The notes: generated by a model not told the origin, from the sequence alone. DNA of 64,000 nt from Candidatus Falkowbacteria bacterium (GCA_016218485.1 JACRDY010000059.1:11529-75528), one strand, 5' to 3'. Positions 6,397-63,895 are shown, numbered from the stretch's first letter. Numbers and translations: made by a program.

Positions 6397-6417
6397 GGAA
6401 ATAAGTTCAAAGTTCAA

Positions 6418-6560
6418 AAGTTATAAAGTTGAAAGTTCAAAGTCCAAAATCCCAAGTTCAAAGTTCAAATCAAGTTCAAAGTTTTAAGTTCAAATGCCAA
6501 ATCAGCGCATTGTTTGAACTTTGTCATTAGGTATTGATTTGAACTTTGGATTTTGAACTT
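6418..6560. repeat. AT-rich palindromic repeat (gttcaaagt arrays; caaagttcaaaatccaaatgacaaatcaa / rc)
   Basis: Same element at 14325-14450 and 45398-45525. Confidence 0.75.
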
Positions 6561-7126: not shown

Positions 7127-7175
7127 AGTAGCAAGTTAGAAAGTTATAAAGTTGAAAGTTTAGTTTTTTTAACTT
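7127..7175. repeat. agttataaagttgaaagtt palindromic repeat family
   Basis: Related copies at 9142-9180, 9550-9615, 10420-10490 and 10960-11045. Confidence 0.65.
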
Positions 7176-8346: not shown

Positions 8347-9141
8347 ATGGGTACGGCTAATATAAAAAATATTAAAGTAGCAGCGAAAGCCGGCGGGGAG
8401 GTACTCCGGCAGTATTTCGGTCAGGCTTTAAAAACTACCATTAAAACCGGTCCGGCGGATTTTGTGACCCAGGCGGATCTAGAGTCCGAGGCGGAAATTA
8501 TCAGAATTCTGGAAGCGGCGTTCCCGGACTACAATATTGACTCAGAAGAGCGCGGGCTGATTGATAAGGGTTCGGATTGGACATTTGTCATTGACCCGTT
8601 GGATGGTTCCAATAATTTTGTTTGTGGGATACCAAATTTTGCTGTTAGCATTGCTTTGTTAAAACAAAATACGTTGGAGGTTGGGGTTATTCAAGTGCCA
8701 TTATCCGGTCAGATTTATTGGGCGGCTCGGAATCAGGGTGCTTATGTCGGTGATTTGCCTAATCAGCCGCTCAGGGTGAGTGCGGCTCGGGAAATAAACT
8801 GTTCAACGATTGCCGTGGGTATGGGGTATGATGCTGTTCCTATGCGACAGACTATTTATAATCGGCTGGCCGCGATCCGTTTCCAGCGGGTATTGTCGGG
8901 CTGGTGTTCCACGCTGGAGCACGCGGTTTTGGCGGCGGGCAAGATTGAATTGGCGCTGCAGTACAAGGGCGAGCAGTATGATTTTTTGGCCGGGAAAATT
9001 ATTATGCGGGAAGCCGGTGCGATCATTACCGATTTGGCTGGCCAGCCGGAGAGCAGTGACTTGAACGGCAGTTTCATCGCCGGGAACAGCCGGGAGATGG
9101 TAGAGAAGTTTTTGGCGGGGATGGATTGGCAGGAATTATAG
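8347..9141 (+). CDS. inositol monophosphatase family protein (SuhB-like)
   Basis: 264 aa; DPLDGSNNF and WTFVIDPLDG IMPase motifs. Confidence 0.85.
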   Translation: MGTANIKNIKVAAKAGGEVLRQYFGQALKTTIKTGPADFVTQADLESEAEIIRILEAAFPDYNIDSEERGLIDKGSDWTFVIDPLDGSNNFVCGIPNFAVSIALLKQNTLEVGVIQVPLSGQIYWAARNQGAYVGDLPNQPLRVSAAREINCSTIAVGMGYDAVPMRQTIYNRLAAIRFQRVLSGWCSTLEHAVLAAGKIELALQYKGEQYDFLAGKIIMREAGAIITDLAGQPESSDLNGSFIAGNSREMVEKFLAGMDWQEL

Positions 9142-9163
9142 TTGAAAGTTATAAAGTTGAAAG

Positions 9164-9508
9164 TTATAAAGTTTTTATAAATCCAGAGATGAGTTTTGAT
9201 ATCTCAGTCGCCAGTTGAATGTACTGTGTGAATTGATCGTTGGGTATATATTTTAATTCTCGGCCAATATAGAGCATTGATCGTACTTCTCCACAGGATC
9301 CTTTGGCGATATAGAGGAAGGCGATGAATTCTTTATTCGTCCGGCGTTCAAACCCTTCAGCGATATTATTCATAATAGAGACTGAAGCTCTTTGAATTTG
9401 ATCACGGAATCCCCAGTCTTTATTATCTCTCATTGATGTGTATATGAGTAAGGATAATATTTGAGCTTTTTGCCAGGCAATAATATCTTCAAATCTTTTA
9501 ATAATCAT
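9164..9508 (-). CDS. four-helix-bundle protein (23S rRNA intervening-sequence protein family)
   Basis: 114 aa; AWQKA...ASVSIMNNIAEGFERRTNKEFIAFLYIAKGSCGEV matches family consensus; strongly AT-rich; flanked by agttataaagtt repeats. Confidence 0.8.
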   Translation of the reverse strand: MIIKRFEDIIAWQKAQILSLLIYTSMRDNKDWGFRDQIQRASVSIMNNIAEGFERRTNKEFIAFLYIAKGSCGEVRSMLYIGRELKYIPNDQFTQYIQLATEISKLISGFIKTL

Positions 9509-9671
9509 ATACTCACAGTATAAGAATAATTATTAAAAAATATCTAAACTCTTGATTTTTCCCTTTATAATTTGCAACTTTATAACTTTATAACTTTCAA
9601 CTTTATAACTTTTTTAACTAAAAAACCCCGTGGGCATATCCCACGAGCTTTTTTAAATTTTCAATCCGGAG

Positions 9672-10355
9672 TTAAACCGCCAGCTTGATACTCGGGCCCA
9701 TAGAGGTGCAGAGTACGGCATGTTTGAGGTAGGTGCCTTTAGACGATGAGGGTTTGGCTTTACGTACCGCTTCTAGGAAGGTTTCGGCATTATCCAGCAG
9801 TTTGTCTTGGCCAAAGGAGATTTTGCCGATCAGCTGATGGATGTTGCCGGTATTGTCGCTCTTGAAGGTGATTTTACCTTTTTTTAATTCTGAAATTATT
9901 TTAGCGACGTTCGGGCCGACAGTTTCGTTTTTCGGCGACGGCATCAGGCCGCGAGTGCCAAGGATTTTGGCGATGACGGCGATCTTCGGCATCATGGCCG
10001 GAGTGGCTACCGCCACTGCAAAATCAGTTTTCTCGGTTTTTTTGATTTCATTGATCAGGTCTTCGCCGCCGACCAGGTCAGCGCCGGCTTCCCGCGCGTC
10101 CTTTTCCTTATCAGCTTCCACAAAGGCAGCCACCCGTTTGCTCTTGCCCGTGCCGTGCGGCAGGGTAATGGTGGAGCGGATTTGCTGGTCGCTCTTTTTG
10201 GTATCAATGCCGAGCCGCAGGTGGATTTCCACGCCGGCGTCAAATTTTTCAGTCTTATGGCTGATAATCAGATTCAGCGCTTCGGCCAGGCTGTAGACTT
10301 GGCTGCGGTTAATTTTGGTAGCTAGTTCGTTGTAACGTTTGCCGTGTTTTGGCAT
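9672..10355 (-). CDS. rplA: 50S ribosomal protein L1
   Basis: 227 aa; L1 family throughout. Confidence 0.93.
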   Translation of the reverse strand: MPKHGKRYNELATKINRSQVYSLAEALNLIISHKTEKFDAGVEIHLRLGIDTKKSDQQIRSTITLPHGTGKSKRVAAFVEADKEKDAREAGADLVGGEDLINEIKKTEKTDFAVAVATPAMMPKIAVIAKILGTRGLMPSPKNETVGPNVAKIISELKKGKITFKSDNTGNIHQLIGKISFGQDKLLDNAETFLEAVRKAKPSSSKGTYLKHAVLCTSMGPSIKLAV

Positions 10356-10420
10356 AGGTATTTCGTTCAGTGGTGCGTGCGTCCGCCGCGGCGGACTCCC
10401 ACGGTTAGTTAGTTGTCAGT
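10356..10420 (-). promoter_or_regulatory. rplA 5' leader with conserved structured element (GUGGGAGUCCGCCGCGGCGGACGCACGCACCAC)
   Basis: ~45 nt identical to the rplK leader; contains the 16-bp palindrome gtccgccgcggcggac. Confidence 0.5.
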
Positions 10421-10490
10421 TAGAAAGTTGAAAGTTATAAAGTTAAAAGTACAAAACTTTCAACTTTATAACTTTATAATTTTAAACTTT
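10420..10490. repeat. agttataaagtt-family palindrome between rplK and rplA (terminator-like)
   Basis: Inverted repeat read directly. Confidence 0.6.
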
Positions 10491-10911
10491 ATTCCACCAT
10501 AATCCCCATCTGTCGGGCCGTGCCTTCAATAATGCGCATGGCGGCATTGATGTCATGAGCGTTGAGATCAACCATTTTTTTCTCGGCGATCTCTCTCACT
10601 TGAGCGCGGGTGACTTGGCCGACTTTTTCTTGCAGCGGTTTGCCTGAACCTTTGGCTACACCCGCGGCTTTTTTTAAGAGTTCAGCGGCCGGCGGAGTTT
10701 TGAGAATAAAGGTGTAGGTGCGATCCTCGTAGATGGTGATTTCACAGGGAGTAATGTCACCCGGCATTTGCTTGGTGGCTTCATTAAATTTACTGCAGAA
10801 TTCACTGATGTTCACGCCATGCTGGCCGAGCGCCGGGCCGACCGGCGGCGCCGGGTTGGCTTGCGCGCCCGGGATCTGCAGCTTGACGATTGTTTTGATT
10901 TTCTTAGCCAT
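10489..10911 (-). CDS. rplK: 50S ribosomal protein L11
   Basis: 140 aa; [35 protein letters not shown]. Confidence 0.95.
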
Positions 10912-10975
10912 ATACGTTTCGTTAAGTGGTGCGTGCGTCCGCCGCGGCGGACTCCCACGGTTGTTAGTTAAAAGT
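10912..10975 (-). promoter_or_regulatory. rplK 5' leader carrying the same structured element as the rplA leader
   Basis: gtgcgtgcgtccgccgcggcggactcccacgg on the + strand, identical to 10370-10410. Confidence 0.5.
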
Positions 10976-11041
10976 TAGAAAGTTGAAAGTTATAAAGTTG
11001 AAAGTTTTGTACTTTTAACTTTATAACTTTCAACTTGTAAC

Positions 11042-11587
11042 TCAGATTTTTTTTACTTGCAGGAAATCCAGCTCCACCGGTGTCTCGCGGCCGAACATAG
11101 AGACGAGCGCCTTGATCTTGCCGCGGGTTTCATCAATCTCGGAAATTTTTCCTTCAAAGTTTTTGAACGGGCCGTCCACGATGCGGATGGGCTGGCCGAT
11201 AGAGAGGTCAATGGTGTAGGTTGGCTCTTCCACGCCCTTGCGTTTCATGATAGCTTCCACTTCTTTTTTGGACATGGGCGTCGGCACCGTGCCGGAGCTG
11301 GTGAAGCCGGTGACGTTGGGGGTATTGCGCACCACGTACCAGGAATCATCAGTGACGGTCATTTCCACCATGATGTAGCCGGGGAAGATTTTTTCCTCAA
11401 TGACTTTCCGTTTACCATTTTTGATTTTGATCTTTCGCTCAGTCGGAATAACCACGTTAAAAATTTTGTCGTCCATACCCATGGAGACAATTCTGGACTT
11501 GAGGTCTTCCACCACTTTTTCCTCATAGCCGGAGTAGGTGTGAATGACGTACCAGCGGCGGCCGAGCTGTAGTGTTTGTTTTGGCAT
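11042..11587 (-). CDS. nusG: transcription termination/antitermination factor NusG
   Basis: 181 aa; NGN domain plus KOW (GQPIRIVDGPFKNFEGKISEID). Confidence 0.92.
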   Translation of the reverse strand: MPKQTLQLGRRWYVIHTYSGYEEKVVEDLKSRIVSMGMDDKIFNVVIPTERKIKIKNGKRKVIEEKIFPGYIMVEMTVTDDSWYVVRNTPNVTGFTSSGTVPTPMSKKEVEAIMKRKGVEEPTYTIDLSIGQPIRIVDGPFKNFEGKISEIDETRGKIKALVSMFGRETPVELDFLQVKKI

Positions 11588-11589
11588 AG

Positions 11590-11640
11590 TGGAGTAGTCC
11601 CTAGTCCTTAGTCCTTAGTCCTTAGTCCTTAGTCCTTAGC
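11590..11640. repeat. Tandem heptamer array (tccttag)x6-7; in the nusG mRNA it reads (CUAAGGA)n just 5' of the start codon
   Basis: Read directly; overlaps the secE stop codon; the same heptamer in opposite orientation lies before pilT at 13226-13262. Confidence 0.85.
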
Positions 11641-11642
11641 TC

Positions 11643-11831
11643 TTAGCGGTTGATGAGGTATTCAAAGCCAAAGGAAAAGATATAGTCTAGGAGACCCAAA
11701 AAGGCGGCCAACACCAGGCTGATGCCGATCACCAGCGCGGTGTGTTTGGTCGTTTCTTTTTTGGTCGGCCAAGTGACTTTTTTGAGTTCCACCTTGGATT
11801 CTTTGAAATATTCCACGATTTTGTTGGCCAT
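11643..11831 (-). CDS. secE: preprotein translocase subunit SecE
   Basis: 62 aa; single C-terminal TM; conserved secE-nusG-rplK-rplA context. Confidence 0.85.
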   Translation of the reverse strand: MANKIVEYFKESKVELKKVTWPTKKETTKHTALVIGISLVLAAFLGLLDYIFSFGFEYLINR

Positions 11832-11845
11832 AGTGTTTAAAATAA

Positions 11846-11947
11846 ATCCAGCACCTTCCAGAATACCCCATCAGCTTGCTGTGGGGGTGAATGGCTGAGA
11901 GAGTATGCCTGCAGTGTGTACTACCCCGACAGGAAGGTGCTGGATTT
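11846..11947. repeat. atccagcaccttccagaatacccc...ggaaggtgctggat palindromic repeat (long form with a gaatggctgagagagtat extension)
   Basis: Copies at 28771-28831, 31128-31245 and 51177-51237; partial at 4885-4935. Confidence 0.8.
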
Positions 11948-12131
11948 TAAAACCGCCCGGAGGCGGTATATTCAGTTTCTGTAGGTATTATAGGGGAAAA
12001 TACTGCGGCAGTCAAGGGGATAAGTTTTTGGGATAAGTTTTTGTACAGATAAGTTTTTGTGGTTGACATAAATAATATATTATGATAAAACAAGAAAGGT
12101 TTCCACCCCCATGACAATAAGGAGGCGGGTC

Positions 12132-13225: not shown

Positions 13226-13262
13226 ACTAATAACTAAGGACTAAGGACTAAGGACTAAGGAC
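13226..13262. repeat. Tandem heptamer array (ctaagga)x5 immediately 5' of the pilT start; equals five tandem AAGGA Shine-Dalgarno cores
   Basis: Read directly; the last AAGGA lies 5 nt before the ATG. Confidence 0.85.
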
Positions 13263-13273
13263 TAAGGACTATT

Positions 13274-14323
13274 ATGGATATCAACCAATTTTTCTCGACC
13301 GCCATTACCAAGGGCGCTTCAGACGTTCACCTGGTGGCCGGGCACAAACCGACTGTCAGAATTTTTGGCAAGCTGCAGGAAATAGACGCTAGCGCGAGCG
13401 CGCTGGATAACGCGGAATTAACCAAGGGTATTTTTGGTCTCTTAACCAAAGAGCAGGTGGGGCGGTTTGAGCGCGAGTGGGAGCTGGACTTCGCCTACCA
13501 GGTGGATCACACCCGCTTCCGCGTCAACCTGCACTACCAGCTGGAGCAGATCGGCCTGGCCGCGCGTCTGGTGCCCAAAGATATCCCCACGCCGGCCGAG
13601 ATTAACCTGGAGCCGGTGCTCTACGAGCTGACGCACCTCAACCAGGGGTTCATCCTCGTCACCGGACCGACCGGCAGCGGTAAATCCACCACCATTGCCA
13701 GCATGCTCAATATTATCAATACCGAGCGGCGGTCGCACATCATTACCCTGGAAGATCCGATTGAGTTCATTTACCCCAAGCAGCAGAGTATCGTGGAGCA
13801 GCGCGAAGTCGGCCGCGACACCAAAACTTTCCACGCCGGGCTGAAGTATGTCCTGCGCCAGGATCCTAACGTCATCCTGATTGGCGAAATGCGCGACCCG
13901 GAGACCATCGCCGCCGCCCTGACCGCGGCCGAGACCGGGCACTTGGTTTTTTCCACCCTGCACACCAATTCGGCGGCCGAGACCGTGGAGCGGATCATTG
14001 ATTCGTTTGACTCCGAGCGGCAGCGCCAGATCCTGATCCAGCTTGGTTCGGCTTTGAAGGCGGTCGTGACGCAGCAGCTGGTGCCGACCGTGGAAGACAA
14101 GGTGACGGTGGCGCGGGAAATTATGATCAATACGCCCGCCATCGCCAACCTCATCAGGCAGAATAAGATCGCCCAGATTCCCTCGGTCATCCAGACCGGC
14201 CGTAATGATGGCATGATGACGATGAGCGCGGCGCTCAAAAATCTCTACAACAACGGACTGATTTCCGCCGATGTCTACCAGCACCGGCTGGTGAGCAGTG
14301 AGAAGGTGGGAAGTTACTTTTAG
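13274..14323 (+). CDS. pilT: type IV pilus retraction ATPase PilT
   Basis: 349 aa; GFILVTGPTGSGKSTT Walker A plus Asp box and His box of the PilT/PilU family. Confidence 0.9.
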   Translation: MDINQFFSTAITKGASDVHLVAGHKPTVRIFGKLQEIDASASALDNAELTKGIFGLLTKEQVGRFEREWELDFAYQVDHTRFRVNLHYQLEQIGLAARLVPKDIPTPAEINLEPVLYELTHLNQGFILVTGPTGSGKSTTIASMLNIINTERRSHIITLEDPIEFIYPKQQSIVEQREVGRDTKTFHAGLKYVLRQDPNVILIGEMRDPETIAAALTAAETGHLVFSTLHTNSAAETVERIIDSFDSERQRQILIQLGSALKAVVTQQLVPTVEDKVTVAREIMINTPAIANLIRQNKIAQIPSVIQTGRNDGMMTMSAALKNLYNNGLISADVYQHRLVSSEKVGSYF

Positions 14324-14324
14324 T

Positions 14325-14450
14325 TGAAAGTTCAAAGTTCAAAATCCAAATGACAAATCAATGCCAAATGACAAAGTTCAAAAGGTGCGACTATTAGGCA
14401 TTTAAACTTTGAACTTGATTTGAACTTTTGATTTTGAACTTTGAACTTAA
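14325..14450. repeat. AT-rich gttcaaagt palindromic repeat
   Basis: Near-identical to 6418-6560 and 45398-45525. Confidence 0.75.
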
Positions 14451-18359: not shown

Positions 18360-18434
18360 CATCGTCTAACGGTTAGGACATCAGGTTTTCAACCTGGTAA
18401 CCCGGGTTCGACTCCCGGTGGGGTCACCAACCGA
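18360..18434 (+). tRNA. tRNA-Glu (anticodon UUC), CCA encoded
   Basis: Cloverleaf folded by hand: acceptor GGCCCCA/TGGGGTC; D-arm TCGTCTAACGGTTAGGAC; anticodon loop TTTTCAA; T-arm CCGGGTTCGACTCCCGG. Confidence 0.85.
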
Positions 18435-18585
18435 TGAGCTGTTCGAGAGATGTTATAGGGTGACCTATAGCGGAGACCCGAACCTGTCCGCCGAAGTCCG
18501 CCGCGGCGGACGTAGGTGGATGGATTGAATATTTGGCTCGAAAGGGCAAACCAAGAAATCGCCGAAGGGCGGTTTTTTGATATAG
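18435..18585 (+). ncRNA. candidate small RNA or structured tRNA trailer ending in an intrinsic terminator (cgccgaagggcggtttttt)
   Basis: ~150 nt non-coding; contains a third copy of the gtccgccgcggcggac palindrome; terminator at ~18558-18580; not matched to any known RNA family. Confidence 0.2.
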
Positions 18586-22477: not shown

Positions 22478-22725
22478 TATCTAGTATCTAGTATCTGGTA
22501 TCTAGGGAAAAGTCACTGCTGTAAGTTAATTTTAGATATTCAACTTTAGATGCCGTCTATGAAAAAGCGCTGACGAGCAGCGTAGCCTTAAATCAGACGA
22601 GCAAAATATATCAGACTTTAGCAAAATAAGCAAGGTAAGTAGAGGAGGTGTCTCATAATCTAGGTGATTTTCCCAGATACCAGATACCAGATACCAGATA
22701 CTAGATACCAGATACTAAATACGGT
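22478..22725. repeat. ~250-bp element bounded by inverted tandem heptamer arrays (tatctag x4 ... ccagata x6)
   Basis: Read directly; MITE-like architecture. Confidence 0.6.
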
Positions 22726-35119: not shown

Positions 35120-35231
35120 AAAAACAAACCCGTTCGCAATAGCGGGAACGGATTTGTTTGACGGTTCCAGGTTTGACACTTGAATATTACCAGTATAACA
35201 AAGTATATTGTTGTGTCAATGGAATAGGTGT

Positions 35232-35300
35232 GGAGCTAAGGGGAATCGAACCCCTGTATTCAAGTGTCAGGCTGGAATACCGCCACCAGGCATAGCTCCA
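35232..35300 (-). tRNA. tRNA-like gene with canonical acceptor and T-arm but atypical D/anticodon region; anticodon unresolved (loop CCUGACA)
   Basis: Minus-strand RNA GGAGCUAUGCCUGGUGGCGGUAUUCCAGCCUGACACUUGAAUACAGGGGUUCGAUUCCCCUUAGCUCCA; 7/7 acceptor pairs; GGGGUUCGAUUCCCC T-arm; no CCA; anticodon stem needs a C-U mismatch or a 9-bp stem. Confidence 0.55.
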
Positions 35301-49007: not shown

Positions 49008-50018
49008 ATGGTTCAAAAAGTCCGCGTCGCCATTAACGGTTTCGGTCGCATTGGCCGGGCGGCATTTAAAATTGCTTTAGACAACAAGAAAGTGGAGGTG
49101 GTGGCGATTAATGATCTGGTGGCGCCGTCGGTGCTGGCGTATCTTTTAAAATATGATTCAGTCTACAATACGTACGATAAGAAAGTGACCGCTGACAGTA
49201 AACACGTCATCGTCAATGGCAAGAAGTATCCGGTGTTTCAGGAGCGCGAGCCAAAGAGATTGCCCTGGAAAAAGTTGGGAGTGGATGTGGTTTTGGAGTG
49301 CACCGGATTTTTTCTGGACACGGCCGGGGCCGGACAGCACCTGCGGGCGGGCGCCAAAAAAGTGGTCATCTCCGCACCGGGCAAAGACGATGTGGCCAAC
49401 ACGCACGTCTTCGGCACTCTAGAGACGCAGAAGCATGTTAAGCACGGCCAAGTGGTTTCCAACGCTTCCTGCACCACCAATTGCATCAGCCCGGTGATGC
49501 AAGTCTTGGCCACCGTGTTTGGGATTGAGAAAGCGATGATGACGACCGCGCACGCCTATACCGCGAGCCAGGGGCTGGTTGATGAACCAAACAGCAAGGA
49601 TATGCGTGAAGGCCGCGCGGCGGCAATGAACCTAGTACCCACCCACACCGGCGCGGCGGAGGCGACCGCCAAAGTGGTCCCGGCGCTGCAGGGAAAATTC
49701 ACCGGTATTTCCATCCGCGTGCCCGTGATCTGCGGTTCGTTGTCTGACGTCACCTGTGTTTTGAAAAAAAATGTGACGGCAGAACAGGTCAATAATGCGT
49801 TTCGCCGCGCTGCCAAGCAGCCGCTGTTCAAAAATATTCTGGAAGTTTCCGACGCACCATTAGTTTCCAGTGACATCATTGGCAATCCGCATTCGGCGAT
49901 CGTGGACACGACCTTTACCCGCGTGGTTGACGGTAACTTAGTGAAGGTTTTGGCCTGGTATGATAACGAGTGGGGGTACGCGCACCGGTTGGTGGAGATG
50001 GCGGTGGCAGTAAGTTAG
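49008..50018 (+). CDS. gap: glyceraldehyde-3-phosphate dehydrogenase
   Basis: 336 aa; NGFGRIGR and ASCTTNC active-site motifs. Confidence 0.95.
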   Translation: MVQKVRVAINGFGRIGRAAFKIALDNKKVEVVAINDLVAPSVLAYLLKYDSVYNTYDKKVTADSKHVIVNGKKYPVFQEREPKRLPWKKLGVDVVLECTGFFLDTAGAGQHLRAGAKKVVISAPGKDDVANTHVFGTLETQKHVKHGQVVSNASCTTNCISPVMQVLATVFGIEKAMMTTAHAYTASQGLVDEPNSKDMREGRAAAMNLVPTHTGAAEATAKVVPALQGKFTGISIRVPVICGSLSDVTCVLKKNVTAEQVNNAFRRAAKQPLFKNILEVSDAPLVSSDIIGNPHSAIVDTTFTRVVDGNLVKVLAWYDNEWGYAHRLVEMAVAVS

Positions 50019-50019
50019 T

Positions 50020-50125
50020 AATCAGTAATCAGTAATCAGTAATCAGTAATCAGTAATCAGTAATCAGTAATCAGTAATCAGTAATCAGTAACTAGTTACT
50101 AGTTACTGATTACCAGTTACTTTAT
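50020..50125. repeat. Tandem heptamer array (agtaatc)x10 followed by inverted (agttact)x3
   Basis: Read directly. Confidence 0.9.
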
Positions 50126-51237: not shown

Positions 51238-51339
51238 AAAAATTAGAAATTGGAGAAAAACCCTTTGAAATAAAAGGTTTTTTATTTGCCAAAATAGGGG
51301 ATTCTGGTATAGTTGATGAGGGAGAAATTCAGTATTTCC

Positions 51340-51440
51340 TGCGTTTTAGTTATTGGAAAGAGATTTAGTATATCGTATGTCGTATATGGTATGTGGGGAA
51401 ATTCCCCCATATACCATATACCACATACTATATTCCCCCC
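51340..51440. repeat. gtatatg-heptamer-based palindrome directly upstream of paralog 1
   Basis: tcgtatgtcgtatatggtatgtgggg / ccccatataccatataccacatac. Confidence 0.6.
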
Positions 51441-51441
51441 T

Positions 51442-53091
51442 ATGCTCAACTGCAAGAATTGTAATCAACCTTTCACCATCTACCCCGAAGACCAGGAAAT
51501 GTACGATAAGTTTGCCGTACCCGCGCCGCGGCGTTGTCCGCGTTGCCGGCTGATTCAGCGGCTGATGTTCCGGAACGCTCGGGCCCTGTATTACCGGAAG
51601 TGCGACCGCAGCGGCGAGACCATTTTGTCCAGCTATAATCCGAGTCAGCCGTTCCCGGTGTACAAGCCGGATATTTGGTGGAGTGACCAATGGGAAGCCA
51701 TGGATTACGCCCGGGATTATGATTTTGGCAAACCATTTTTTGCCCAATTCAAAGAGCTGAATGACGTGGTACCGCACTTCAGCCTCTTCGTCAGTAATGG
51801 CACGGTGGTGAATTGCGACTTTACCAACTGTATTGGTTTTTCCAAGAATTGTTATTTGACGTTTGAGACTGACTACGCGGAGGACAGCTATTACTCCAAC
51901 CTCTTGAAACGGAGCAAGGACATGGTGGACTGTTCTATTTGCTATGATGATGAATTTTGCTACCAGTGCGTTGATTGCCAGGCGTCGTACGGCTTGCGCT
52001 ATTGTCAAAATTGCACCGGTTGCCGGGACAGCTATTTCCTGTTTGATTGTAAATCGTGTAATGACTGCATCGGCTGTATCAACCAGCGCTATCAGAAATT
52101 CATGATTTTTAACGAGCAGTACAGTGAAGCAGAATATAACCAGAAAAAAGCCGCGCTGCGGCTGGATACCCGCTCGGGCGTCGCGGCGCTCGCTTCGCAG
52201 TGCCAGCAGTTTTTCGGGAAGCACCCGCACAAAAATTTGCAGTTTGAAAAGAACGTCAATAGTGTCGGTAACTATTTGTATAACTCCAAAAACGCATTCC
52301 AGTGCTTCGACTGCAGCGACCTGGAAGACTGCCGCTACTGCGCTAAGCTGTCAATCGGCGTCAAGTCGTGCATGGATTACAACTCGTGGGGCGACCGGGC
52401 GGAGCTCGTCTACAGCTGTTCGGATGTCGGCGGCGGCGTGTATAACCTGAAATTTTGCTGGGCGATTGATACCAAGACCTCAGACTGTGAATACTGCACG
52501 CAGTGTATTGCCTGCAAGGACTGCTTTGGCTGCAGCGGACTGCAAAAGAAGCAGTACTGCATTTTGAATAAACAGTATTCGGAAAAAGAGTATTTCGCGT
52601 TGAAAGAAAAAATTATTGCCAAAATGACAGCCGATGGAGAGTATGGTGAATTTTTTCCGGCAGAGCTGTGTCCGTTTGCCTATAATGAAACCATCGTGAT
52701 GGATTATTTCCCCCTAACCAAAGATGAAGCGTTGAAAGCCGGCTATCGCTGGTATGACCGGGAAAAGTCCAAGCAGCCTGCTGAAACTGAGGCGCCGGAT
52801 GCGATTGGCGAGGTGGCGGACGCCATCATTGGTAAGGTATTAGCCTGCCGTGATTGCCAGTCAAATTATAAGATTATTAAACAAGAATTAGATTTTTGCC
52901 GTCGGGCGAGCGCGCCGATTCCTAGCCAGTGTCCGGACTGCCGACATTTTGGCCGAATGAACAAGCGGATGCCGCTGAGTTTGATCACGGTCAAATGCGA
53001 TAAATGCGGCAATGACATGACGACCGGATATACTGCCGGGGCGGTGCAGAAGGTGTATTGCGAGGAATGTTATCAGAAGGAAATTTACTAG
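51442..53091 (+). CDS. Cys-rich multi-zinc-ribbon repeat protein, paralog 1 of 6 (unassigned family)
   Basis: N-terminal CxxC...CPRCR ribbon; two internal Cys-rich blocks each ending in YC(I/M)(L/F)N(K/E)QYSE.EY; GEYGEFFP...PFAYNET; C-terminal ribbons ending YCEECYQKEIY. Confidence 0.8.
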   Translation: MLNCKNCNQPFTIYPEDQEMYDKFAVPAPRRCPRCRLIQRLMFRNARALYYRKCDRSGETILSSYNPSQPFPVYKPDIWWSDQWEAMDYARDYDFGKPFFAQFKELNDVVPHFSLFVSNGTVVNCDFTNCIGFSKNCYLTFETDYAEDSYYSNLLKRSKDMVDCSICYDDEFCYQCVDCQASYGLRYCQNCTGCRDSYFLFDCKSCNDCIGCINQRYQKFMIFNEQYSEAEYNQKKAALRLDTRSGVAALASQCQQFFGKHPHKNLQFEKNVNSVGNYLYNSKNAFQCFDCSDLEDCRYCAKLSIGVKSCMDYNSWGDRAELVYSCSDVGGGVYNLKFCWAIDTKTSDCEYCTQCIACKDCFGCSGLQKKQYCILNKQYSEKEYFALKEKIIAKMTADGEYGEFFPAELCPFAYNETIVMDYFPLTKDEALKAGYRWYDREKSKQPAETEAPDAIGEVADAIIGKVLACRDCQSNYKIIKQELDFCRRASAPIPSQCPDCRHFGRMNKRMPLSLITVKCDKCGNDMTTGYTAGAVQKVYCEECYQKEIY

Positions 53092-53154
53092 CGCACAGCA
53101 CAGAGCTTATAGCACAAAGCTATGCGCTCTGAGCTCTGTGCTTTGAGCTACTTT
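53092..53154. repeat. Inter-paralog palindromic spacer (gcacagcacaaagc...gctctgagctctgtgctttgagc); same at 54841-54903 and 58418-58477
   Basis: Three near-identical copies read directly. Confidence 0.8.
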
Positions 53155-54840
53155 ATGCCAACCTGTAAACAATGCAATCAACCTTTCATCCTTGGCCAGA
53201 TCGGCACAGATATTTTGCGGCGGCTGGATGTACCTGAACCGTCAGTGTGTGATGTTTGCGCCGTGCGCCAGCTGATGGCCTTTCGGAACGAGCGGACTTT
53301 TTATTCCAGCCAGTGTCAGAAGTGTTCGAAAACCATTCTATCGATGTATCCGCCAGACACCGCGCTGAGCGTCTACTGTCGCGACTGCTGGTGGGGAGAT
53401 ACTTGGGACGGCACGCAGTTTGGCCGAGTGTATCGTGGGCCGGAAACATTTTTCCAAGAGCTAGCTGAACTGCAGAAAGTCGTGCCTCGGGAAGGATTGG
53501 TTAACCTGAACAGTCCGGATTGCGATTACTGCAACCACGTCCGTGATTGCAAGTCCTGCTATATGTGTTCGCTCTTGTCTGATCAGTGTGAAGAATGTTA
53601 CTACTGCTACTGGATTGTCACGGTGAAGGATTCAGCGGCCTGTTACTATGGGCGCAATAACCAGCGCTGTTACTTCTGTGTCGCCACGATCCAGAGCTAT
53701 GGCTGCTCGTATGTATTGGAATGTGAAAATTGTTTAGACTGCCACTATAGCTTTGATCTGCGAGGCTGTAAGAATTGCATGTTCAGCAGCAACTTACGCA
53801 ATCAGCAGTATGTTTTTGAGAATCAACAGTTGACCAAGACTGAATACGAAACGCGGGCCGCGGCAGTCAATCGGGGGAGCTGGCAGCAGTCACGAGACTC
53901 TGTGCAACGCTGGCATCAGCTGATTGACCAGGCGGTGAAGGCGTACTCATACCAGAGTAAATGTGAAAATTCTACCGGGGATAATATCCAGAGCAGCGTG
54001 AACACCCAGCTCGCCTATAATAGTTTTGAAGATGAAAACGCCTATAACGCCGCGAGCGTGATTTGTGCTAAGAATATTTTTAACGGTTTTGCCGTGGGCA
54101 GCCAGCCGACCGAATGGGCGAGTAATATCGCCGTCGTGAAGGGCGGCACGCAGATCGTCAGCTGTTTCAACACCGCGTACTCCAGCGATATTTATTTTTG
54201 TGAGAATCTAATTTCCTGCATGGACTGCATCGGCTGTATTGGCCTGCACAAAAAGAAGTACTGCATTCTGAATACACAGTATGAGGAAGAGGAGTATAAA
54301 AAAATCAAAGCCGAGCTACTCGGGTATTTGCGTCAGAGCGGCGCGCTGTCGGAATTTTTCCCAAAGTCATTTTCGCCATTTGCCTACAATGAAACCGCGG
54401 CGCAGGATTTTTATCCTTTGACGAAAGAACAAGCCGTTCAGCTGGACTATACTTGGAAGGATGAATTACCCGGGACTTTTGGCCATGAGACGCTGCCAGC
54501 CGATGGCGTGCCCGATCGGATTGCCGAGGTGAATGATGACATCTTACGGCAGACTCTAGCCTGTATTCACTGCGGCCGGAATTTCAAATTAATTAAACAA
54601 GAGCTGACACTTTATCGGTCGCTCGGCGTGCCGATCCCGCGCGAATGTTTTAATTGTACGTTGCGTCAGCGGCTGGACTTGATGGGGGAGCGTGATTTAC
54701 GGGAGCGGCAGTGTGATTGTACGCGAGCAGAACATCAGCAGCATCAGGGTAAAACATGCCAAAATAAGTTTTTGACGAAATATACCGCGAAAGATAAGAA
54801 GGTGTACTGCGAGGAGTGTTATCAGAAGGAAATTTACTAA
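53155..54840 (+). CDS. Cys-rich multi-zinc-ribbon repeat protein, paralog 2
   Basis: Same architecture; true start MPTCKQCNQPF (the ORF-track start lies in the inter-paralog palindrome). Confidence 0.8.
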   Translation: MPTCKQCNQPFILGQIGTDILRRLDVPEPSVCDVCAVRQLMAFRNERTFYSSQCQKCSKTILSMYPPDTALSVYCRDCWWGDTWDGTQFGRVYRGPETFFQELAELQKVVPREGLVNLNSPDCDYCNHVRDCKSCYMCSLLSDQCEECYYCYWIVTVKDSAACYYGRNNQRCYFCVATIQSYGCSYVLECENCLDCHYSFDLRGCKNCMFSSNLRNQQYVFENQQLTKTEYETRAAAVNRGSWQQSRDSVQRWHQLIDQAVKAYSYQSKCENSTGDNIQSSVNTQLAYNSFEDENAYNAASVICAKNIFNGFAVGSQPTEWASNIAVVKGGTQIVSCFNTAYSSDIYFCENLISCMDCIGCIGLHKKKYCILNTQYEEEEYKKIKAELLGYLRQSGALSEFFPKSFSPFAYNETAAQDFYPLTKEQAVQLDYTWKDELPGTFGHETLPADGVPDRIAEVNDDILRQTLACIHCGRNFKLIKQELTLYRSLGVPIPRECFNCTLRQRLDLMGERDLRERQCDCTRAEHQQHQGKTCQNKFLTKYTAKDKKVYCEECYQKEIY

Positions 54841-54903
54841 CACACAGCACAAAGCGCAGAGCACAAAGCTATGCGCTCTGAGCTCTGTGCTTTGAGCTAC
54901 TGT

Positions 54904-56565
54904 ATGCCAACCTGTAAAAACTGCACCACCGACTTCACCATCACCGACGCAGACAAAACGTTCTACGCCAAGATTGACGTACCCGAGCCGACGCGCTGCC
55001 CGCAGTGCCGGAAACAGCGGCGTTTGAGCTTCCGCAATGAGTCAAATTTTTATTTAACCAAATGTCAGCGGTGTCATAAAGAAACGGTTTCGGTGTATTC
55101 ACCGAATAAACCTTTGGTGGTGTATTGTAAAGACTGCTGGTGGGGTGAGGACTGGAATCCGTTGGATTACGGCCAAGAGTTTGATTGGCAGAAAAGTTTT
55201 ACCGAGCAGTTTAGAGATCTGATGGCGGTGGTGCCGCGGCCGGCGCTCTTGCATTCCGAGAGCGTGAACTGCGATTATAGCATGTTTTCGGCCAATAATA
55301 AGGACTGCTACATGCTGGTACAGTCCAGTAACTGCGAAGAATGCCACTACTGCTACTGGGTGCAGAAATGCCGTAATTGTTTGGATTCGGCGTTTTGTTT
55401 GGACTGCGAGCTGTGCTATCAAGTTGTCGGCGGGGAAAAGTGTTATAACTGTTTTTATTGTAACAATTGTTCCGGTTGCTTGGACAGTCGGTTTCTGCTT
55501 AATTGTCGTGGCTGCAAAAATTGCTTTGGCTGCGTTAATCTCAATAACGCGCAATATTGCATTTTTAATGAACAGAAAACGAAAACCGAGTATGAAACAT
55601 TTATTCAATCAGTAGATTTTATTTCATACCGACACTACCGAGAGTACCAGGAAAAGTTTTATCAGTTTTCTTTACAGCACCCGCGTCGTTTCGCTGAAAT
55701 TTATCAGGCGGATAATTCTACGGGTAATTATCTCAAACGGGTTAAAAACGTCACCATGATTTTTGACGGTTATGATATTGAAGACTGTAGCTACGGTCAG
55801 CACGTCTTGCGTGAGGTGAAAGATGTGATGGATGTCAGTAATGCCGCTCGTAAAGCAGAATTAGTCTATGAAAGTGTTCAGGCGGTATTGAACGTGTATC
55901 AGATTCGTTTTAGTTTATTCCCGCGTCAAGGCGCTTCATTTTTGGATTACTGCGATCATTGCGTCGGGGCTAAGAATTGTTTCGGCTGCATCGCGGTGCG
56001 GAATCAAAAGTATTGCATTTTGAATAAACAGTATAGTGAAAAAGAATATACCGTTGTGGTGCCGAAAATTATTAATCACCTCAAACAAACAGGGAAGTGG
56101 GGAGAATTTTTTGATCCGAGTCTGTCGGCGTTTGGCTATAACGAAACGAACGCCATGGAATTTTTCCCGTTGACGAAAAAAGCGGCAATGACTCAAGGGT
56201 TTAACTGGGAGGATAACACCGGCGGTACTTTCGGCCAGGAAACAATCAAGTGGGCAAACATGCCGGATCGTTTCAGCGACTATGCGGGCGACTTGAGCCG
56301 AGAAGTGTTGACGTGCTCTGACTGCCGGCGGAATTATAAGTTGGTGGCCGTAGAACTGGATTTTTATAAAAAATATAGCTTACCCATTCCGCGGCAGTGC
56401 CCGAAGTGTCGCCACCGCGAGCGCATCACCAGCCGGAATCCGGAACAGCTGTATCACCGTGCCTGTATGAACGCAGGGTGTAAGAATGAATTTGAAACCA
56501 CGTATTCACCCGCCCGACCGGAAAAAGTTTATTGTGAAGCGTGTTACCAGAAAGAGATTTATTAG
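54904..56565 (+). CDS. Cys-rich multi-zinc-ribbon repeat protein, paralog 3
   Basis: Same architecture; 5' ~100 nt near-identical to paralogs 5 and 6. Confidence 0.8.
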   Translation: MPTCKNCTTDFTITDADKTFYAKIDVPEPTRCPQCRKQRRLSFRNESNFYLTKCQRCHKETVSVYSPNKPLVVYCKDCWWGEDWNPLDYGQEFDWQKSFTEQFRDLMAVVPRPALLHSESVNCDYSMFSANNKDCYMLVQSSNCEECHYCYWVQKCRNCLDSAFCLDCELCYQVVGGEKCYNCFYCNNCSGCLDSRFLLNCRGCKNCFGCVNLNNAQYCIFNEQKTKTEYETFIQSVDFISYRHYREYQEKFYQFSLQHPRRFAEIYQADNSTGNYLKRVKNVTMIFDGYDIEDCSYGQHVLREVKDVMDVSNAARKAELVYESVQAVLNVYQIRFSLFPRQGASFLDYCDHCVGAKNCFGCIAVRNQKYCILNKQYSEKEYTVVVPKIINHLKQTGKWGEFFDPSLSAFGYNETNAMEFFPLTKKAAMTQGFNWEDNTGGTFGQETIKWANMPDRFSDYAGDLSREVLTCSDCRRNYKLVAVELDFYKKYSLPIPRQCPKCRHRERITSRNPEQLYHRACMNAGCKNEFETTYSPARPEKVYCEACYQKEIY

Positions 56566-56650
56566 GAACGACACGCCCTCTGGGCGTGTTATGTTTGTTA
56601 CGCGCTCTGTAACCATAACACAGCCAGAGGCTGTGTCGTTCCCTTGGAGG
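56566..56650. repeat. Inter-paralog gacacgccctctgggcgtgttatg...cataacacagccagaggctgtgtc palindrome
   Basis: Same family as 48850-48950 and 60112-60190. Confidence 0.8.
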
Positions 56651-56695
56651 AACAATTTTTGACAAAATTTAAAATCCTGGCTATACTAAAGCATT

Positions 56696-58417
56696 ATGCC
56701 ATACTGCCGAAATTGCTCCCAAGCGTTTGACATTACGTTAAAAGAAAAAGATTTTTACGCTAAGATGGGCACCAAACAGCCGAGCCATTGTTTTGATTGC
56801 CGGATGCAGCGCAAGTACGCGTTCAGAAATGAGCGCAAAATTTATAACCGCCAGTGCAGCTTGTGTCAGCAACAGATTATCAGCTCTTACCCGGCGGACG
56901 CGCCTTTTCCGGTGTATTGTTTTGATTGTTGGTGGTCGGATCGGTGGGACGGTTTGAGCTACGGCCGGGATTTTGATTGGTCCCGTCCATTTTTTTCGCA
57001 ACTCTCTGAGCTGTCGCTCAAGGTCCCGCACCAAGCCCTGCCCAATCCGAATAATAACCAGAACAGCCCGTATGTTACGTGGGCCGATTGGAACAAAAAT
57101 TGTTATTTAGTCTTTTCTTCTTCAATGTGTGAAGATTGTTTGTACTCTGAAGTTTTGGTTGACGCTCGAGACTGTGTTGACTGCACGAATGTTAAAGAAT
57201 CGGAGAACTGTTATTTTTCTATCGATTTGCAGAAATGCTATAACGTCAAATTTAGCCGCAATGTAAAAGATTGCCTGGATTGTAATTTTTGTTTTGATTG
57301 CGCTGACTGCAAAAATTGTTTTTTGTCTTATAATCTGCGTCACGGAGAATACTATATCCGTAATGTTCAGTACTCGCCGGACGCGTATGTCCAGGCAGTC
57401 GAGCGGATTATGGCCAGCCGCAGCGAGCTCGTGCGGGCGTGGGATGAATTTATTAACATGATGCGCTCTGACGCCATCCACCAGTTCGCTCGTCAGGTGA
57501 AGTGTGAAGACGTGGAGGGTGATGAGCTGTATGCCTGCAAGCGCAGTTTCAATAGTTTTGATTCGCGCGAGATTCAGGATTGCTGCAATATTATTTACGG
57601 CGACAAGATTAACGACTGCGCTGATAGCTTCGCCATCGTTGACCACGCTGAAAAATGTTTGGAGGTCTTTAGTGTCAATGGCGGCTATCAAAATATGTAC
57701 GGCTATGGTTATTGGGGAAAATCCCAAAATAGCCGGTACAGCAATACCTGCGTTTCGTCCGTTGATTGTTTCGGCTGCATTGGTCTAAAACACCAGAAAT
57801 ATTGTATTCTGAACAAGCAGTATTTGGCGGCCGAATATCAAATCATGGTCAAAAAAGTTTTGGAACATATGCGGAAGTCTAATTATCCGACGTACGCTGG
57901 CCAGACGAGCGAGTGGGGTGAATTTTTCCCGGTGCAGCTTTCACCCTTTGCTTATAATGAAACAATGGCTCATGTTTATTATCCGCTTAAAAAAGAAGAA
58001 GTTTTAGCGCGCGGCTGGGGCTGGAGGGACGAAAATGATATACTCACTGGTAAAGAAACTATTCATGGGGAGGCATTGCCGGATGCTGCGGCATCAGTTC
58101 CCAAGGGCATGACTGACCAGGTGATCGGCTGCGCTGACTGTGGCCGGAATTACAAGCTGATCAAGCAGGAAATAGATTTCTACACCAAACATACTCTGCC
58201 GCTGCCCAAGATGTGTCCGGAGTGCCGCTTTCAGCAGCGGTTGGCCCTGCGTAATCCGCGTAAGCTGTGGCCGCGGCAGTGCACCTGTCTCCTGGGTCAC
58301 GCCAGCCATCAGGGTCAATCAGTCTGTCCGATTCATTTCAAGACCACCTACCGGCCGGCCGAAGGGGGAGAGGCGAAAGTGTATTGTGAGGAATGTTATC
58401 AGAAGGAAATTTACTAG
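56696..58417 (+). CDS. Cys-rich multi-zinc-ribbon repeat protein, paralog 4
   Basis: Same architecture (MPYCRNCSQAF... ...VYCEECYQKEIY). Confidence 0.8.
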   Translation: MPYCRNCSQAFDITLKEKDFYAKMGTKQPSHCFDCRMQRKYAFRNERKIYNRQCSLCQQQIISSYPADAPFPVYCFDCWWSDRWDGLSYGRDFDWSRPFFSQLSELSLKVPHQALPNPNNNQNSPYVTWADWNKNCYLVFSSSMCEDCLYSEVLVDARDCVDCTNVKESENCYFSIDLQKCYNVKFSRNVKDCLDCNFCFDCADCKNCFLSYNLRHGEYYIRNVQYSPDAYVQAVERIMASRSELVRAWDEFINMMRSDAIHQFARQVKCEDVEGDELYACKRSFNSFDSREIQDCCNIIYGDKINDCADSFAIVDHAEKCLEVFSVNGGYQNMYGYGYWGKSQNSRYSNTCVSSVDCFGCIGLKHQKYCILNKQYLAAEYQIMVKKVLEHMRKSNYPTYAGQTSEWGEFFPVQLSPFAYNETMAHVYYPLKKEEVLARGWGWRDENDILTGKETIHGEALPDAAASVPKGMTDQVIGCADCGRNYKLIKQEIDFYTKHTLPLPKMCPECRFQQRLALRNPRKLWPRQCTCLLGHASHQGQSVCPIHFKTTYRPAEGGEAKVYCEECYQKEIY

Positions 58418-58477
58418 TGCACAGCACAAAGCGCACAGCACAAAGCTATGCGCTCTGAGCTCTGTGCTTTGAGCTAT

Positions 58478-60109
58478 ATGCCTAAATGTAAACAATGCAC
58501 CACCGATTTCCCCATCACCGACGCAGACAAAACGTTCTACGCCAAGATTGACGTACCTAAACCGACGCGCTGTCCGCAATGCCGCCGCGTTCGCCGATTG
58601 AGCTACCGTAATGAAATCACATTGTATCCCGCCATCTGTGGTTTGTGTAAGAAAAGCATGATCAGCATGTACAACCCGGACGGATCGTATGTGGTGTATT
58701 GTCAGGATTGCTGGTGGGGAGACGGCTGGGACCCGACGGCATCCGGTCAGACGTATGATCCGAGCCGATCATTTTTTGAACAATTTAGTGAGTTGATGAA
58801 AAAAGTGCCGCGGATCAGTTTGATTAATAAAGAAGCGGACAATAGCGAGTACTGTAATTTTTCTTGGCGGAACAAAAATTCCTACCTTTTATTTACCGGC
58901 GGAGAGAACGATGACGTGTTTTATGCTAATCGCTGCTGGAAGTGCCGGAGTAGTATTGATTGCTCCAACCTGTATAATTGTGAATTGTGTTATGAAGCGA
59001 CTGATTCCGCCAATTGTTATAATTGCGCTTGGCTAGAATACTCAACCGGCTGCTCTGACTGTTGGCTGGGGTACAACCTTAGCGGCTGCTCGGACTGTTT
59101 CGGCTGCGTTAACCTGTCTAATCAGAAATTTCATATTTTTAATACCCCGGTACCTGAAGCCGAGTACCGTCAGCGGATCGCGGAGTTGAAGAAGGACCTG
59201 CCGGCGGCGGCGCAGCTATTTCGGGCACAAAAAATGAAAGGGGTGCGCAAGTACGCCAATATTATAAAATCAGTGAATTGCAGCGGTGATTCAATCGTTG
59301 GCAGCAAGAATTGCCAGTCGTGTTTCCGGGTCAAAGACGCGGAAGACTGCAAGTACGTTTGCGATACGACATTGATCAAAGACAGCTATGACGTTGATAA
59401 CGATGATCATTCAGAATTGCTCTATGAGTGCATTGGTAACGAGTCCAACCATAATCAGCAATTCATTGACATCTGCTGGTTTGATCGGGATATTCAGTAC
59501 TGTAGCCTCTGCATGAGCTCAAAGAATCTGTTTGGCTGTGTGGGAATGAAAAACGCGGAGTACTGTATTTTGAATAAAAAATATTCAGCGGAAGAATATG
59601 AGACGCTACGCCAGCAGATTATTGTCAAAATGAAACAAGATGGGGAATATGGTGAGTTTTTTCCCAGTAAATTTTCGCCCTTTGGTTATAATGAGACGAA
59701 CGCCTCCCTGTATTACGAGCTCAAAAAAGAGCAGGCTGTTGCCGCCGGCTTTACCTGGCAGGACAATTTGCCGTCAACGACTGGTAAAGAAACGCTCAAG
59801 GAATTACCGGCGGACATTAGCCAGGTAAACGAGGGGATTACCAAAGAGATTTTGGCCTGCCAGTCGTGCGGTAAGAATTATAAATTTATTCCCCAGGAAG
59901 TGAAACTGTATAAAATGCTCGGCGTACCGCTCCCGCCACAGTGTTTCCGCTGTCGTCATGTTGGCCGGATCCACCGACGGAATGGCCAGACACTCTATAG
60001 CCGCACCTGCATGAAAGACGGCTGCAAGAATTCATTTGAGACGCCATACGCGCCGGATCGGAAAGAAGTGGTTTACTGTGAGGAGTGCTATCAGAAGGAA
60101 ATTTACTAA
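58478..60109 (+). CDS. Cys-rich multi-zinc-ribbon repeat protein, paralog 5
   Basis: Same architecture. Confidence 0.8.
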   Translation: MPKCKQCTTDFPITDADKTFYAKIDVPKPTRCPQCRRVRRLSYRNEITLYPAICGLCKKSMISMYNPDGSYVVYCQDCWWGDGWDPTASGQTYDPSRSFFEQFSELMKKVPRISLINKEADNSEYCNFSWRNKNSYLLFTGGENDDVFYANRCWKCRSSIDCSNLYNCELCYEATDSANCYNCAWLEYSTGCSDCWLGYNLSGCSDCFGCVNLSNQKFHIFNTPVPEAEYRQRIAELKKDLPAAAQLFRAQKMKGVRKYANIIKSVNCSGDSIVGSKNCQSCFRVKDAEDCKYVCDTTLIKDSYDVDNDDHSELLYECIGNESNHNQQFIDICWFDRDIQYCSLCMSSKNLFGCVGMKNAEYCILNKKYSAEEYETLRQQIIVKMKQDGEYGEFFPSKFSPFGYNETNASLYYELKKEQAVAAGFTWQDNLPSTTGKETLKELPADISQVNEGITKEILACQSCGKNYKFIPQEVKLYKMLGVPLPPQCFRCRHVGRIHRRNGQTLYSRTCMKDGCKNSFETPYAPDRKEVVYCEECYQKEIY

Positions 60110-60111
60110 CA

Positions 60112-60190
60112 AGGGAACGACACGCCCTCTGGGCGTGTTATGTCGGTTACACGCTCTGTAACGATAACACAGCCAGAGGCTGTGTCGCTC
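60112..60190. repeat. Inter-paralog palindrome (same family as 56566-56650)
   Basis: Near-identical. Confidence 0.8.
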
Positions 60191-60200
60191 CGAACAGCAT

Positions 60201-63803: not shown

Positions 63804-63895
63804 GATTGCAGATTTCAGATTGCAGATTGGTATAGTAGTAACGTTACGTACCAACCCAATCTGCAATCTGAAATCTGCAATCTGAAATCTACTAT
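63785..63895. repeat. gattgca / gatttca heptamer-based palindrome between eno and gpmI
   Basis: Read directly. Confidence 0.75.

Follow-up and report, generated by a model that had tools for sequence, protein, structure and literature searches.

Near-identical putative L1 operators upstream of both rplK and rplA in a Candidatus Falkowbacteria bacterium

In the 64,000-nt stretch of Candidatus Falkowbacteria DNA analysed here (hereafter the window), the genes for ribosomal proteins L11 (rplK) and L1 (rplA) are each preceded by a copy of one structured leader. This arrangement raises the question of whether each copy is an operator through which L1 would control its own synthesis and that of L11, or whether the repetition has another origin. 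L1 sites are located at rplK in Proteobacteria, at rplA in Actinobacteria, Cyanobacteria and Chloroflexi, and at both genes in >40% of Firmicutes; the L1-interacting RNA is an irregular stem of 6-12 bp with an internal bulge that has a potential G-A pair and an unpaired A (Fu et al. 2013, PMC3616713).

Two identical leaders before rplK and rplA

The 36-nt sequence ACCGTGGGAGTCCGCCGCGGCGGACGCACGCACCAC has exactly two exact matches in the window, both on the minus strand, where no chance match is expected even with three mismatches allowed. One copy is associated with rplA and the other with rplK, and the start codons of these genes (10355 and 10911, respectively) each lie 14 nt past the 3′ end of their own copy. 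The features of the two leaders are as follows.

10370-10405, minus strand: putative L1 operator, rplA-proximal copy (exact match; match to covariance model R2, described below, at 10367-10404, 27.3 bits, E 1.1e-5)
10402-10399 with 10373-10370, minus strand: P1 of the rplA copy, GUGG paired with CCAC (fold)
10398-10397, minus strand: 5′ GA bulge of the rplA copy (fold)
10396-10391 with 10386-10381, minus strand: P2 of the rplA copy, GUCCGC paired with GCGGAC, loop CGCG (fold)
10380-10374, minus strand: 3′ internal loop of the rplA copy, GCACGCA (fold)
10369-10356, minus strand: spacer of the rplA copy, 14 nt, to the AUG at 10355
10926-10961, minus strand: putative L1 operator, rplK-proximal copy (exact match; R2 match at 10923-10960, 32.0 bits, E 4.6e-7)
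10925-10912, minus strand: spacer of the rplK copy, 14 nt, to the AUG at 10911

The initial annotation had described a duplicated leader before the two genes, and the two exact copies, each 14 nt before an ATG, bear this out. It gave the identical unit as about 45 nt; the duplication stands, but the exact run is 38 nt long, in a region of about 120 nt where homology is roughly 85%. There are no mismatches in the 36-nt core, compared with nine in 40 nt of flank: the linker is identical at 22 of 26 positions (4 mismatches) and the spacer to the ATG at 9 of 14 (5 mismatches), and the similarity includes the adjoining AT-rich palindrome.

The fold of the operator is a short irregular hairpin composed of P1 (GUGG/CCAC), the 5′ GA bulge, a GC-rich P2 of 6 bp and a 7-nt 3′ loop beginning with G, and the rplK-proximal copy has the same sequence and geometry as the rplA-proximal one. 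With 4 bp in P1 and 6 bp in P2, the stem totals 10 bp and is interrupted by a GA bulge within GUGG-GA-G, as expected from the stem length and internal bulge given for L1-interacting RNA (PMC3616713). Both copies are located in the 5′ UTR of rplA or rplK and on the coding strand. The lack of a Shine-Dalgarno (SD) sequence before both AUGs had also been pointed out. This is correct, but it is nothing special: an SD-like 4-mer is missing from 34 of the 42 long ORFs of the window, and the absence of an SD is typical of the genome and lineage.

The secE-nusG-rplK-rplA cluster

The two leaders belong to a four-gene cluster encoded on the minus strand.

9672-10355, minus strand: rplA, ribosomal protein L1 (uL1), the presumed repressor (Pfam PF00687, E 6e-56)
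10489-10911, minus strand: rplK, ribosomal protein L11 (uL11) (Pfam PF03946 and PF00298)
11042-11587, minus strand: nusG (Pfam; gene order shared with relatives)
11643-11831, minus strand: secE (Pfam; gene order shared with relatives)
11987-12015, minus strand: best sigma-70-like promoter match, TTGACT-17-TATAAT, 11/12, upstream of secE (consensus match only)
9627-9647, minus strand: intrinsic-terminator-like hairpin with a U-run, just past rplA (terminator scan)

The rplA product is 100% identical to the NCBI entry "50S ribosomal protein L1" of Candidatus Falkowbacteria bacterium, and aligns over its full length with the T. thermophilus L1 listed under 1zho and 2hw8 (E about 1e-63). In a scan that covered sigma-70 promoters and GC-stem terminators only, the sole consensus promoter (12015-11987) and the terminator (9647-9627) flank the whole secE-rplA cluster. 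Within the cluster, rplK and rplA are separated by a gap of 133 nt that holds a hairpin of 20-30 bp.

The gene order T2SSE / secE-nusG-rplK-rplA / inositol monophosphatase or dCMP deaminase is kept in the nearest relatives. The initial annotation had remarked that rplJ-rplL-rpoBC does not follow rplA and had suggested a check of gene order in relatives. The genes are indeed absent at this position; the comparison indicates that this is not peculiar to the window, as secE-nusG-rplK-rplA is kept and the absence of rplJ-rplL-rpoBC is a conserved synteny typical of the lineage.

The low-GC four-helix-bundle gene said to follow rplA is also present. This ORF (9164-9508, minus strand) belongs to PF05635 (23S_rRNA_IVP / bAvd-type four-helix bundle), has a GC content of 35% vs 51% for the window, and lies between two 29-nt heptamer arrays that are perfectly complementary. 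One related locus (L163, 1586-1942) has a homologue between nusG and rplK, and in two others (L164 and L166) the position that the ORF takes in the window is empty. From these features the ORF looks like a (mobile) insertion.

Another element of 105 nt (11843-11947, minus strand; z -5.76) is closed by a perfect 16-bp stem and is found past the best promoter-like site, ahead of secE. In many bacteria this position, between promoter and secE, is occupied by tRNA-Trp. The element was not called as a tRNA by ARAGORN and matched no Rfam family.

The leaders resemble the putative L1 sites of related loci

Genome and metagenome collections supplied 160 loci with rplK or rplA. In most Patescibacteria, and in many other bacteria, the region before rplA has GUGGGAG, a hairpin of variable sequence and CG..ACCAC. 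A simple regular expression matched 90 of 143 regions upstream of rplA vs 4 of 126 upstream of rplK. In an unfitted MAFFT alignment of 32 sequences, 91% of cells were paired vs 35-54% in slid controls, with compensatory changes in 5 of the 6 P2 pairs. A covariance model built from this alignment (R1) found 61 sites in 100 loci. In the alignment of these 61 sites, all six P2 pairs covary (double changes) and 96% of cells are paired vs 41-56% in slid controls; the observed covariation score was reached by none of 500 shuffles. P1 is invariant across the relatives and thus uninformative for pairing, an invariance that comes partly from the choice of seed, as the regular expression fixes TGG[GC]A...CCAC.

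A second covariance model (R2) was built from the rplA-leader sites of the 61 relatives, with the window sequence left out. Run over the whole 64-kb window with filters off, R2 found only the two leaders (E 4.6e-7 and 1.1e-5, next best E 0.38); the calibration behind these E-values was shortened, and R2 is slightly less independent than this suggests, as the R1 seed included the window sequence (1/32) and the R2 training set was gathered with R1. In 100 related loci (0.5 Mb), R2 made 64 matches, all of them on the gene strand and 63 directly upstream of rplA; the other one precedes rplK, in L141. Where the sequence before rplA could be read, the operator is present in 63 of 79 related loci. 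The relatives have a median of 14 nt between CCAC and the start codon, equal to the distance in the window. The P2 covariation, this positional specificity and the match to E. coli described below are independent of the seed choices.

A search with the Rfam leader models, as the initial annotation had proposed, found no ribosomal protein leader match to either leader, at gathering scores and up to E 10. Rfam 15 did not match the E. coli rplK leader either. The library is therefore without a usable L1-leader model, and the negative result for the window is uninformative and carries no weight. For the long AT-rich hairpins, the search gave nothing but spurious matches to miRNA families.

In many relatives (L163-L170 and many of the L08x-L12x loci), the operator begins with AUGUGGGAG, just upstream of rplA. 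Gene callers sometimes start L1 at an AUG within AUGUGGGAG; for example, protein P0005 (L167, 382-1116) was called with 244 aa, not about 227 aa. Other over-long L1 entries (234-264 aa) may have the same miscalled start. We also noted that rplA has no rplK directly upstream (none, or >700 nt off) in 38 of 83 related loci. Of these, 32 keep the L1 operator in the variant form GUGGGAYCCC...GGGAGYUnnUACCAC, often with a TTGACA-like box about 60 nt upstream. The observation concerns metagenome loci (L082-L088, L093-L101, L106-L108 and L115-L126).

Similarity to the E. coli L11 leader and the 23S L1 stalk

In the secE-rplJ region of E. coli (6.7 kb), the top match of R2 is GGGAGCCUCUCAGAGGCGUUAUUACC, located 19-44 nt upstream of rplK (L162, 1404-1429; 16.7 bits, E 0.0016). 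Given its position, we take this match to be the mutationally defined L1 target. The L1 operator of E. coli has been described in the rplK leader (Baughman & Nomura 1983; Thomas & Nomura 1987; both cited in PMC10931766). The E. coli L11 leader and the window leaders share GGGAG, a short helix, CG(N)nACC, a location in the 5′ UTR near the start codon and mimicry of the 23S stalk. They differ in that E. coli has a single site, before rplK, and an SD, whereas the window has two sites and no SD.

A fold comparison with the 23S L1 site had been suggested. No rRNA genes were found in the 64-kb window, and the comparison is with E. coli 23S only. The E. coli stalk has GGUGGGAG-GCU...AGC-CGACCUUGAAAUACCACC and the window leaders have GUGGGAG-UCCGCC..GGCGGA-CGCACGCACCAC, so that GUGGGAG on the 5′ side of the helix and CG...ACCAC on the 3′ side are common to both; read directly, E. 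coli 23S has GGUGGGAG...CGACC..ACCACC at the L1 stalk. R2 placed its match at the right place on the stalk, but this was not significant (5.1 bits, E 4.2). 23S H76-H78 has full H77/H78 arms and a 3′ strand of 11 nt, whereas the 3′ strand of the window mRNA site has 7 nt. The mRNA site of L1 has been described as a minimal mimic with an affinity below that of rRNA (PMC10931766).

In combination, the R2 matches, the P2 covariation and the similarity to the E. coli leader and 23S agree with the rRNA-mimic L1 operator that the initial annotation had proposed before each of rplK and rplA. The leaders have every sequence-level feature of the L1-operator family, and very probably both copies act as operators through which L1 (uL1) controls translation.

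AT-rich palindromes and heptamer arrays

Each operator is directly preceded by a long AT-rich palindrome.

10418-10492: AT-rich palindrome of 7-8-nt AGTTGAA/AGTTAGAA units, stem about 20-30 bp, between rplK and the rplA operator
10966-11042: AT-rich palindrome of the heptamer-array type in the nusG-rplK gap, before the rplK operator; centre inverted relative to that of 10418-10492

The two palindromes match at 92% over 66 nt when one is inverted vs 82% in direct orientation. AGTTGAA-type units of 7-8 nt also occur at 6403-6494, 7129-7160, 9140-9173 and 9563-9612.

Next to each operator, on its upstream side, are perfect stems of 20-26 bp (about -25 to -30 kcal/mol). They could be terminators or RNase III sites that split the secE-nusG-rplK-rplA mRNA, and stems of this size are long enough for RNase III. 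The genes would then be independent units, and such splitting would be compatible with L1 control. We consider this reading possible but doubtful. A simple scan sees no G+C-rich stem with a U-run at the palindromes, the sole consensus promoter and terminator bracket the four-gene cluster, and similar arrays are present in most intergenic regions whatever the gene, which suggests a generic role and not an operon-specific one.

The element between rplK and rplA had been called terminator-like in the initial annotation, a description that did not hold up: it fits no intrinsic terminator and is a heptamer array of the kind found in most intergenic regions. In the intrinsic-terminator scan, the GC hairpin of the leaders lacks a U-run, the AT-rich palindromes lack both a G+C-rich stem and a U-run, and none of them was called; a terminator reading of either was set aside as unsupported by the scan.

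Short tandem arrays of 7-8-nt units are present in nearly every intergenic region of the window, and the unit varies by site (AAAACATT, AAGTTCA, AGTTGAA, TAGTCCT/ACTAAGG, AATTACG, CCAGATA, CAGTAAT, AGATTGC and others). Examples are 869-946, 6403-6494, 9140-9173/9563-9612, 11595-11646 vs 13226-13271, 14322-14448, 18172-18195/18330-18348, 22673-22722, 50008-50121 and 63798-63890. Arrays are often paired in inverted orientation, with a gene between them or as the two arms of a long hairpin. Related Patescibacteria loci have similar arrays, some of them with the same AAAGTTAT unit as in the window (L085, L110 and L119). The arrays recall the STRR heptamers of cyanobacteria. They also recall the intergenic TAACTGA repeats of Beggiatoaceae (PMC4679880).

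Putative dual L1 sites are rare among relatives

Within a single cluster of the window, R2 matches both the leader of rplK and that of rplA, an arrangement like that of the Firmicutes, Thermus and Thermotoga dual type. In G. kaustophilus both sites bind L1, with a Kd of 25-50 nM (PMC3616713), and T. thermophilus and T. maritima are dual-site organisms too (2024 review, PMC10931766). Dual L1 sites are thus already published; the window pair is rare among relatives and unusually identical. Actinobacteria, Cyanobacteria and Chloroflexi regulate L1 only, and archaea (Methanococcus) regulate L1-L10-L12, whereas rplK in the window has its own copy. In the Actinobacteria loci, GUGGCAG-hairpin-..GACCAC lies directly before rplA, about 21 nt from the start.

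In the Patescibacteria loci examined, a single site before rplA is the rule, from which the window differs. A site upstream of rplK was found in only one of 64 related loci with readable sequence (L141), which has both sites and, given that its genes have SD sequences, is probably not a Patescibacterium. All of the eight nearest relatives (65-71% L1 identity) have the site before rplA, and one of them also has it before rplK (L164, GCA_964582625.1). The L1 of L164 is 70% identical to that of the window, and its operators before the two genes are diverged. As only L164 among the eight nearest relatives has the rplK site, dual sites occur sporadically in the lineage. No relatives closer than about 70% L1 identity were found in the genome and metagenome collections searched.

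In the other dual cases, L141 and L164, the two copies differ in sequence, unlike the window pair. No near-identity comparable to the exact 38-nt core of the window is described for published dual pairs in the available text of PMC3616713 and PMC10931766. Most relatives have the operator only before rplA, and the rplK copy probably arose from the rplA leader by duplication or gene conversion.

It is conceivable, though unlikely, that only the rplA-proximal copy works, and that the rplK copy is a young neutral by-product of the duplication or conversion of a repeat module, with no regulation of L11. Of the 64 model matches, 63 are before rplA, and sites before rplK are as scarce as described above, both in the readable loci (1/64) and in the nearest relatives (1/8). 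Moreover, P2 is identical in both copies though free to vary in relatives, which points to a recent origin, and the surrounding heptamer arrays, one of which is inverted between the copies, look recombinogenic. Given these identical hairpins, the rplK copy could be too young for a test of selection. However, a copy with the same sequence and the same 14-nt distance to the AUG would be expected to bind L1 and occlude initiation like the rplA copy. The core has 0/36 mismatches vs 9/40 in the diverged flanks; G. kaustophilus has functional dual sites (PMC3616713), and the pair in L164 is of independent origin. Near-identity of this kind is consistent with a fairly recent duplication or conversion and with purifying selection acting on both cores, and two working operators are the reading that we prefer.

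A third copy of the GC palindrome

The GC-rich 16-nt palindrome at the centre of the leaders, GTCCGCCGCGGCGGAC, has three copies in 64 kb vs 0.07 expected.

18496-18511, plus strand: third copy of the 16-nt palindrome, within a structured RNA after tRNA-Glu (exact match; fold)

The initial annotation had noticed this copy but placed it at 18507-18522, 11 nt off. It is present after tRNA-Glu, and it is not an L1 site. The third copy and the leaders have 18 nt in common (AGTCCGCCGCGGCGGACG) and nothing beyond. Neither R1 nor R2 matched it and the GGGAG/ACCAC flanks are missing, so that it was rejected both as a further L1 site and as a decoy for L1. It is located in the helix CUGUCCGCC-GAA-[hairpin]-GUA-GGUGGAUGG inside a structured RNA of about 150 nt (z -5.85).

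This structured RNA (18430-18580, plus strand) lies directly after tRNA-Glu, has its own terminator at 18561-18580, and had no Rfam match up to E 10. The ORF downstream of it, from near 18705, was read as a candidate glutamine synthetase.

The initial annotation had stated that its reading would fail if the motif were simply a dispersed repeat with many copies. In the window, the whole 36-nt motif has two copies, both at the starts of ribosomal protein genes, where they are expected, and we rejected the dispersed-repeat reading. A REP-like element would have many copies in unrelated intergenic regions; the counts here are two for the 36-mer and three for the bare 16-mer in 64 kb, and the palindrome has no copy in 170 related loci. 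A scan of 2.9 million viral contigs for the 18-mer (AGTCCGCCGCGGCGGACG) gave 17 scattered, unrelated single copies, which is uninformative.

Two further readings give the palindrome a role of its own. One is that the operator travels in a recombinogenic cassette (heptamer palindrome, linker and operator) that would rewire the targets of L1 feedback, and that P2 would carry a second, L1-independent signal (protein binding or processing) linking ribosomal protein synthesis to the RNA adjacent to tRNA-Glu; we regard this as a long shot. The other, which we consider very improbable, is that the GC-rich 16-18-nt palindrome is the real unit, as a REP-like element or the DNA operator of a dimeric transcription factor at rplK, rplA and tRNA-Glu/glnA, with the likeness to L1 sites secondary: the three identical copies, the presence of AGTCCGCCGCGGCGGACG without L1-site flanks in the third, and a P2 sequence that is not constrained by L1 in relatives and could carry a second signal all speak for it, but the conserved parts that score in the model are the flanks (GUGGGAG and CG..ACCAC), which the third copy lacks, relatives retain the operator with wholly different P2 sequences, and the palindrome itself is confined to the window among the loci compared (0/170), apart from the scattered single copies in viral contigs.

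Other features of the window

Six consecutive ORFs of about 550-590 aa are located at 51316-61841 on the plus strand. Three of them (starts at 53122, 54871 and 58448) have a near-identical upstream aaagcgcagagcacaaagct, and AGCTCTG arrays are found at the junctions. The run looks like a tandem array of paralogues. A weak Rfam tRNA match (35231-35299, minus strand; 29.8 bits, just over gathering) is absent from the ARAGORN output.

Discussion

Judging from the sequence comparisons, we infer that L1 would bind and repress both messages as follows. The hairpin would reproduce the junction recognised by L1 in the 23S L1 stalk (H76-H78), and L1 in excess over free 23S rRNA would bind this mRNA mimic. 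With the 3′ end of the mimic 14 nt from the start codon, bound L1 would cover the region used by the 30S subunit and initiation would be blocked. New 23S rRNA, the stronger ligand, would then titrate L1 off the mimic. In E. coli, rplA begins 3 nt past rplK and is repressed via translational coupling (PMC3616713), whereas in the window a 133-nt spacer with a long hairpin separates the genes. This gap would prevent coupling of the E. coli type, and therefore a second operator would be the simplest way to L1 control of L11: placed before rplK, it would let L1 feedback act on L11 as well.

These findings extend the L1 feedback operator, as a putative element, to the Patescibacteria (CPR), where it is near-universal before rplA in the loci examined. 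They are also of use for annotation, as no Rfam model detects L1 leaders. The mechanism of L1 as known stays unchanged. As a small case in regulatory evolution, the window may offer a snapshot of how dual operators can arise, through the copying of an existing leader to a position before the neighbouring gene.
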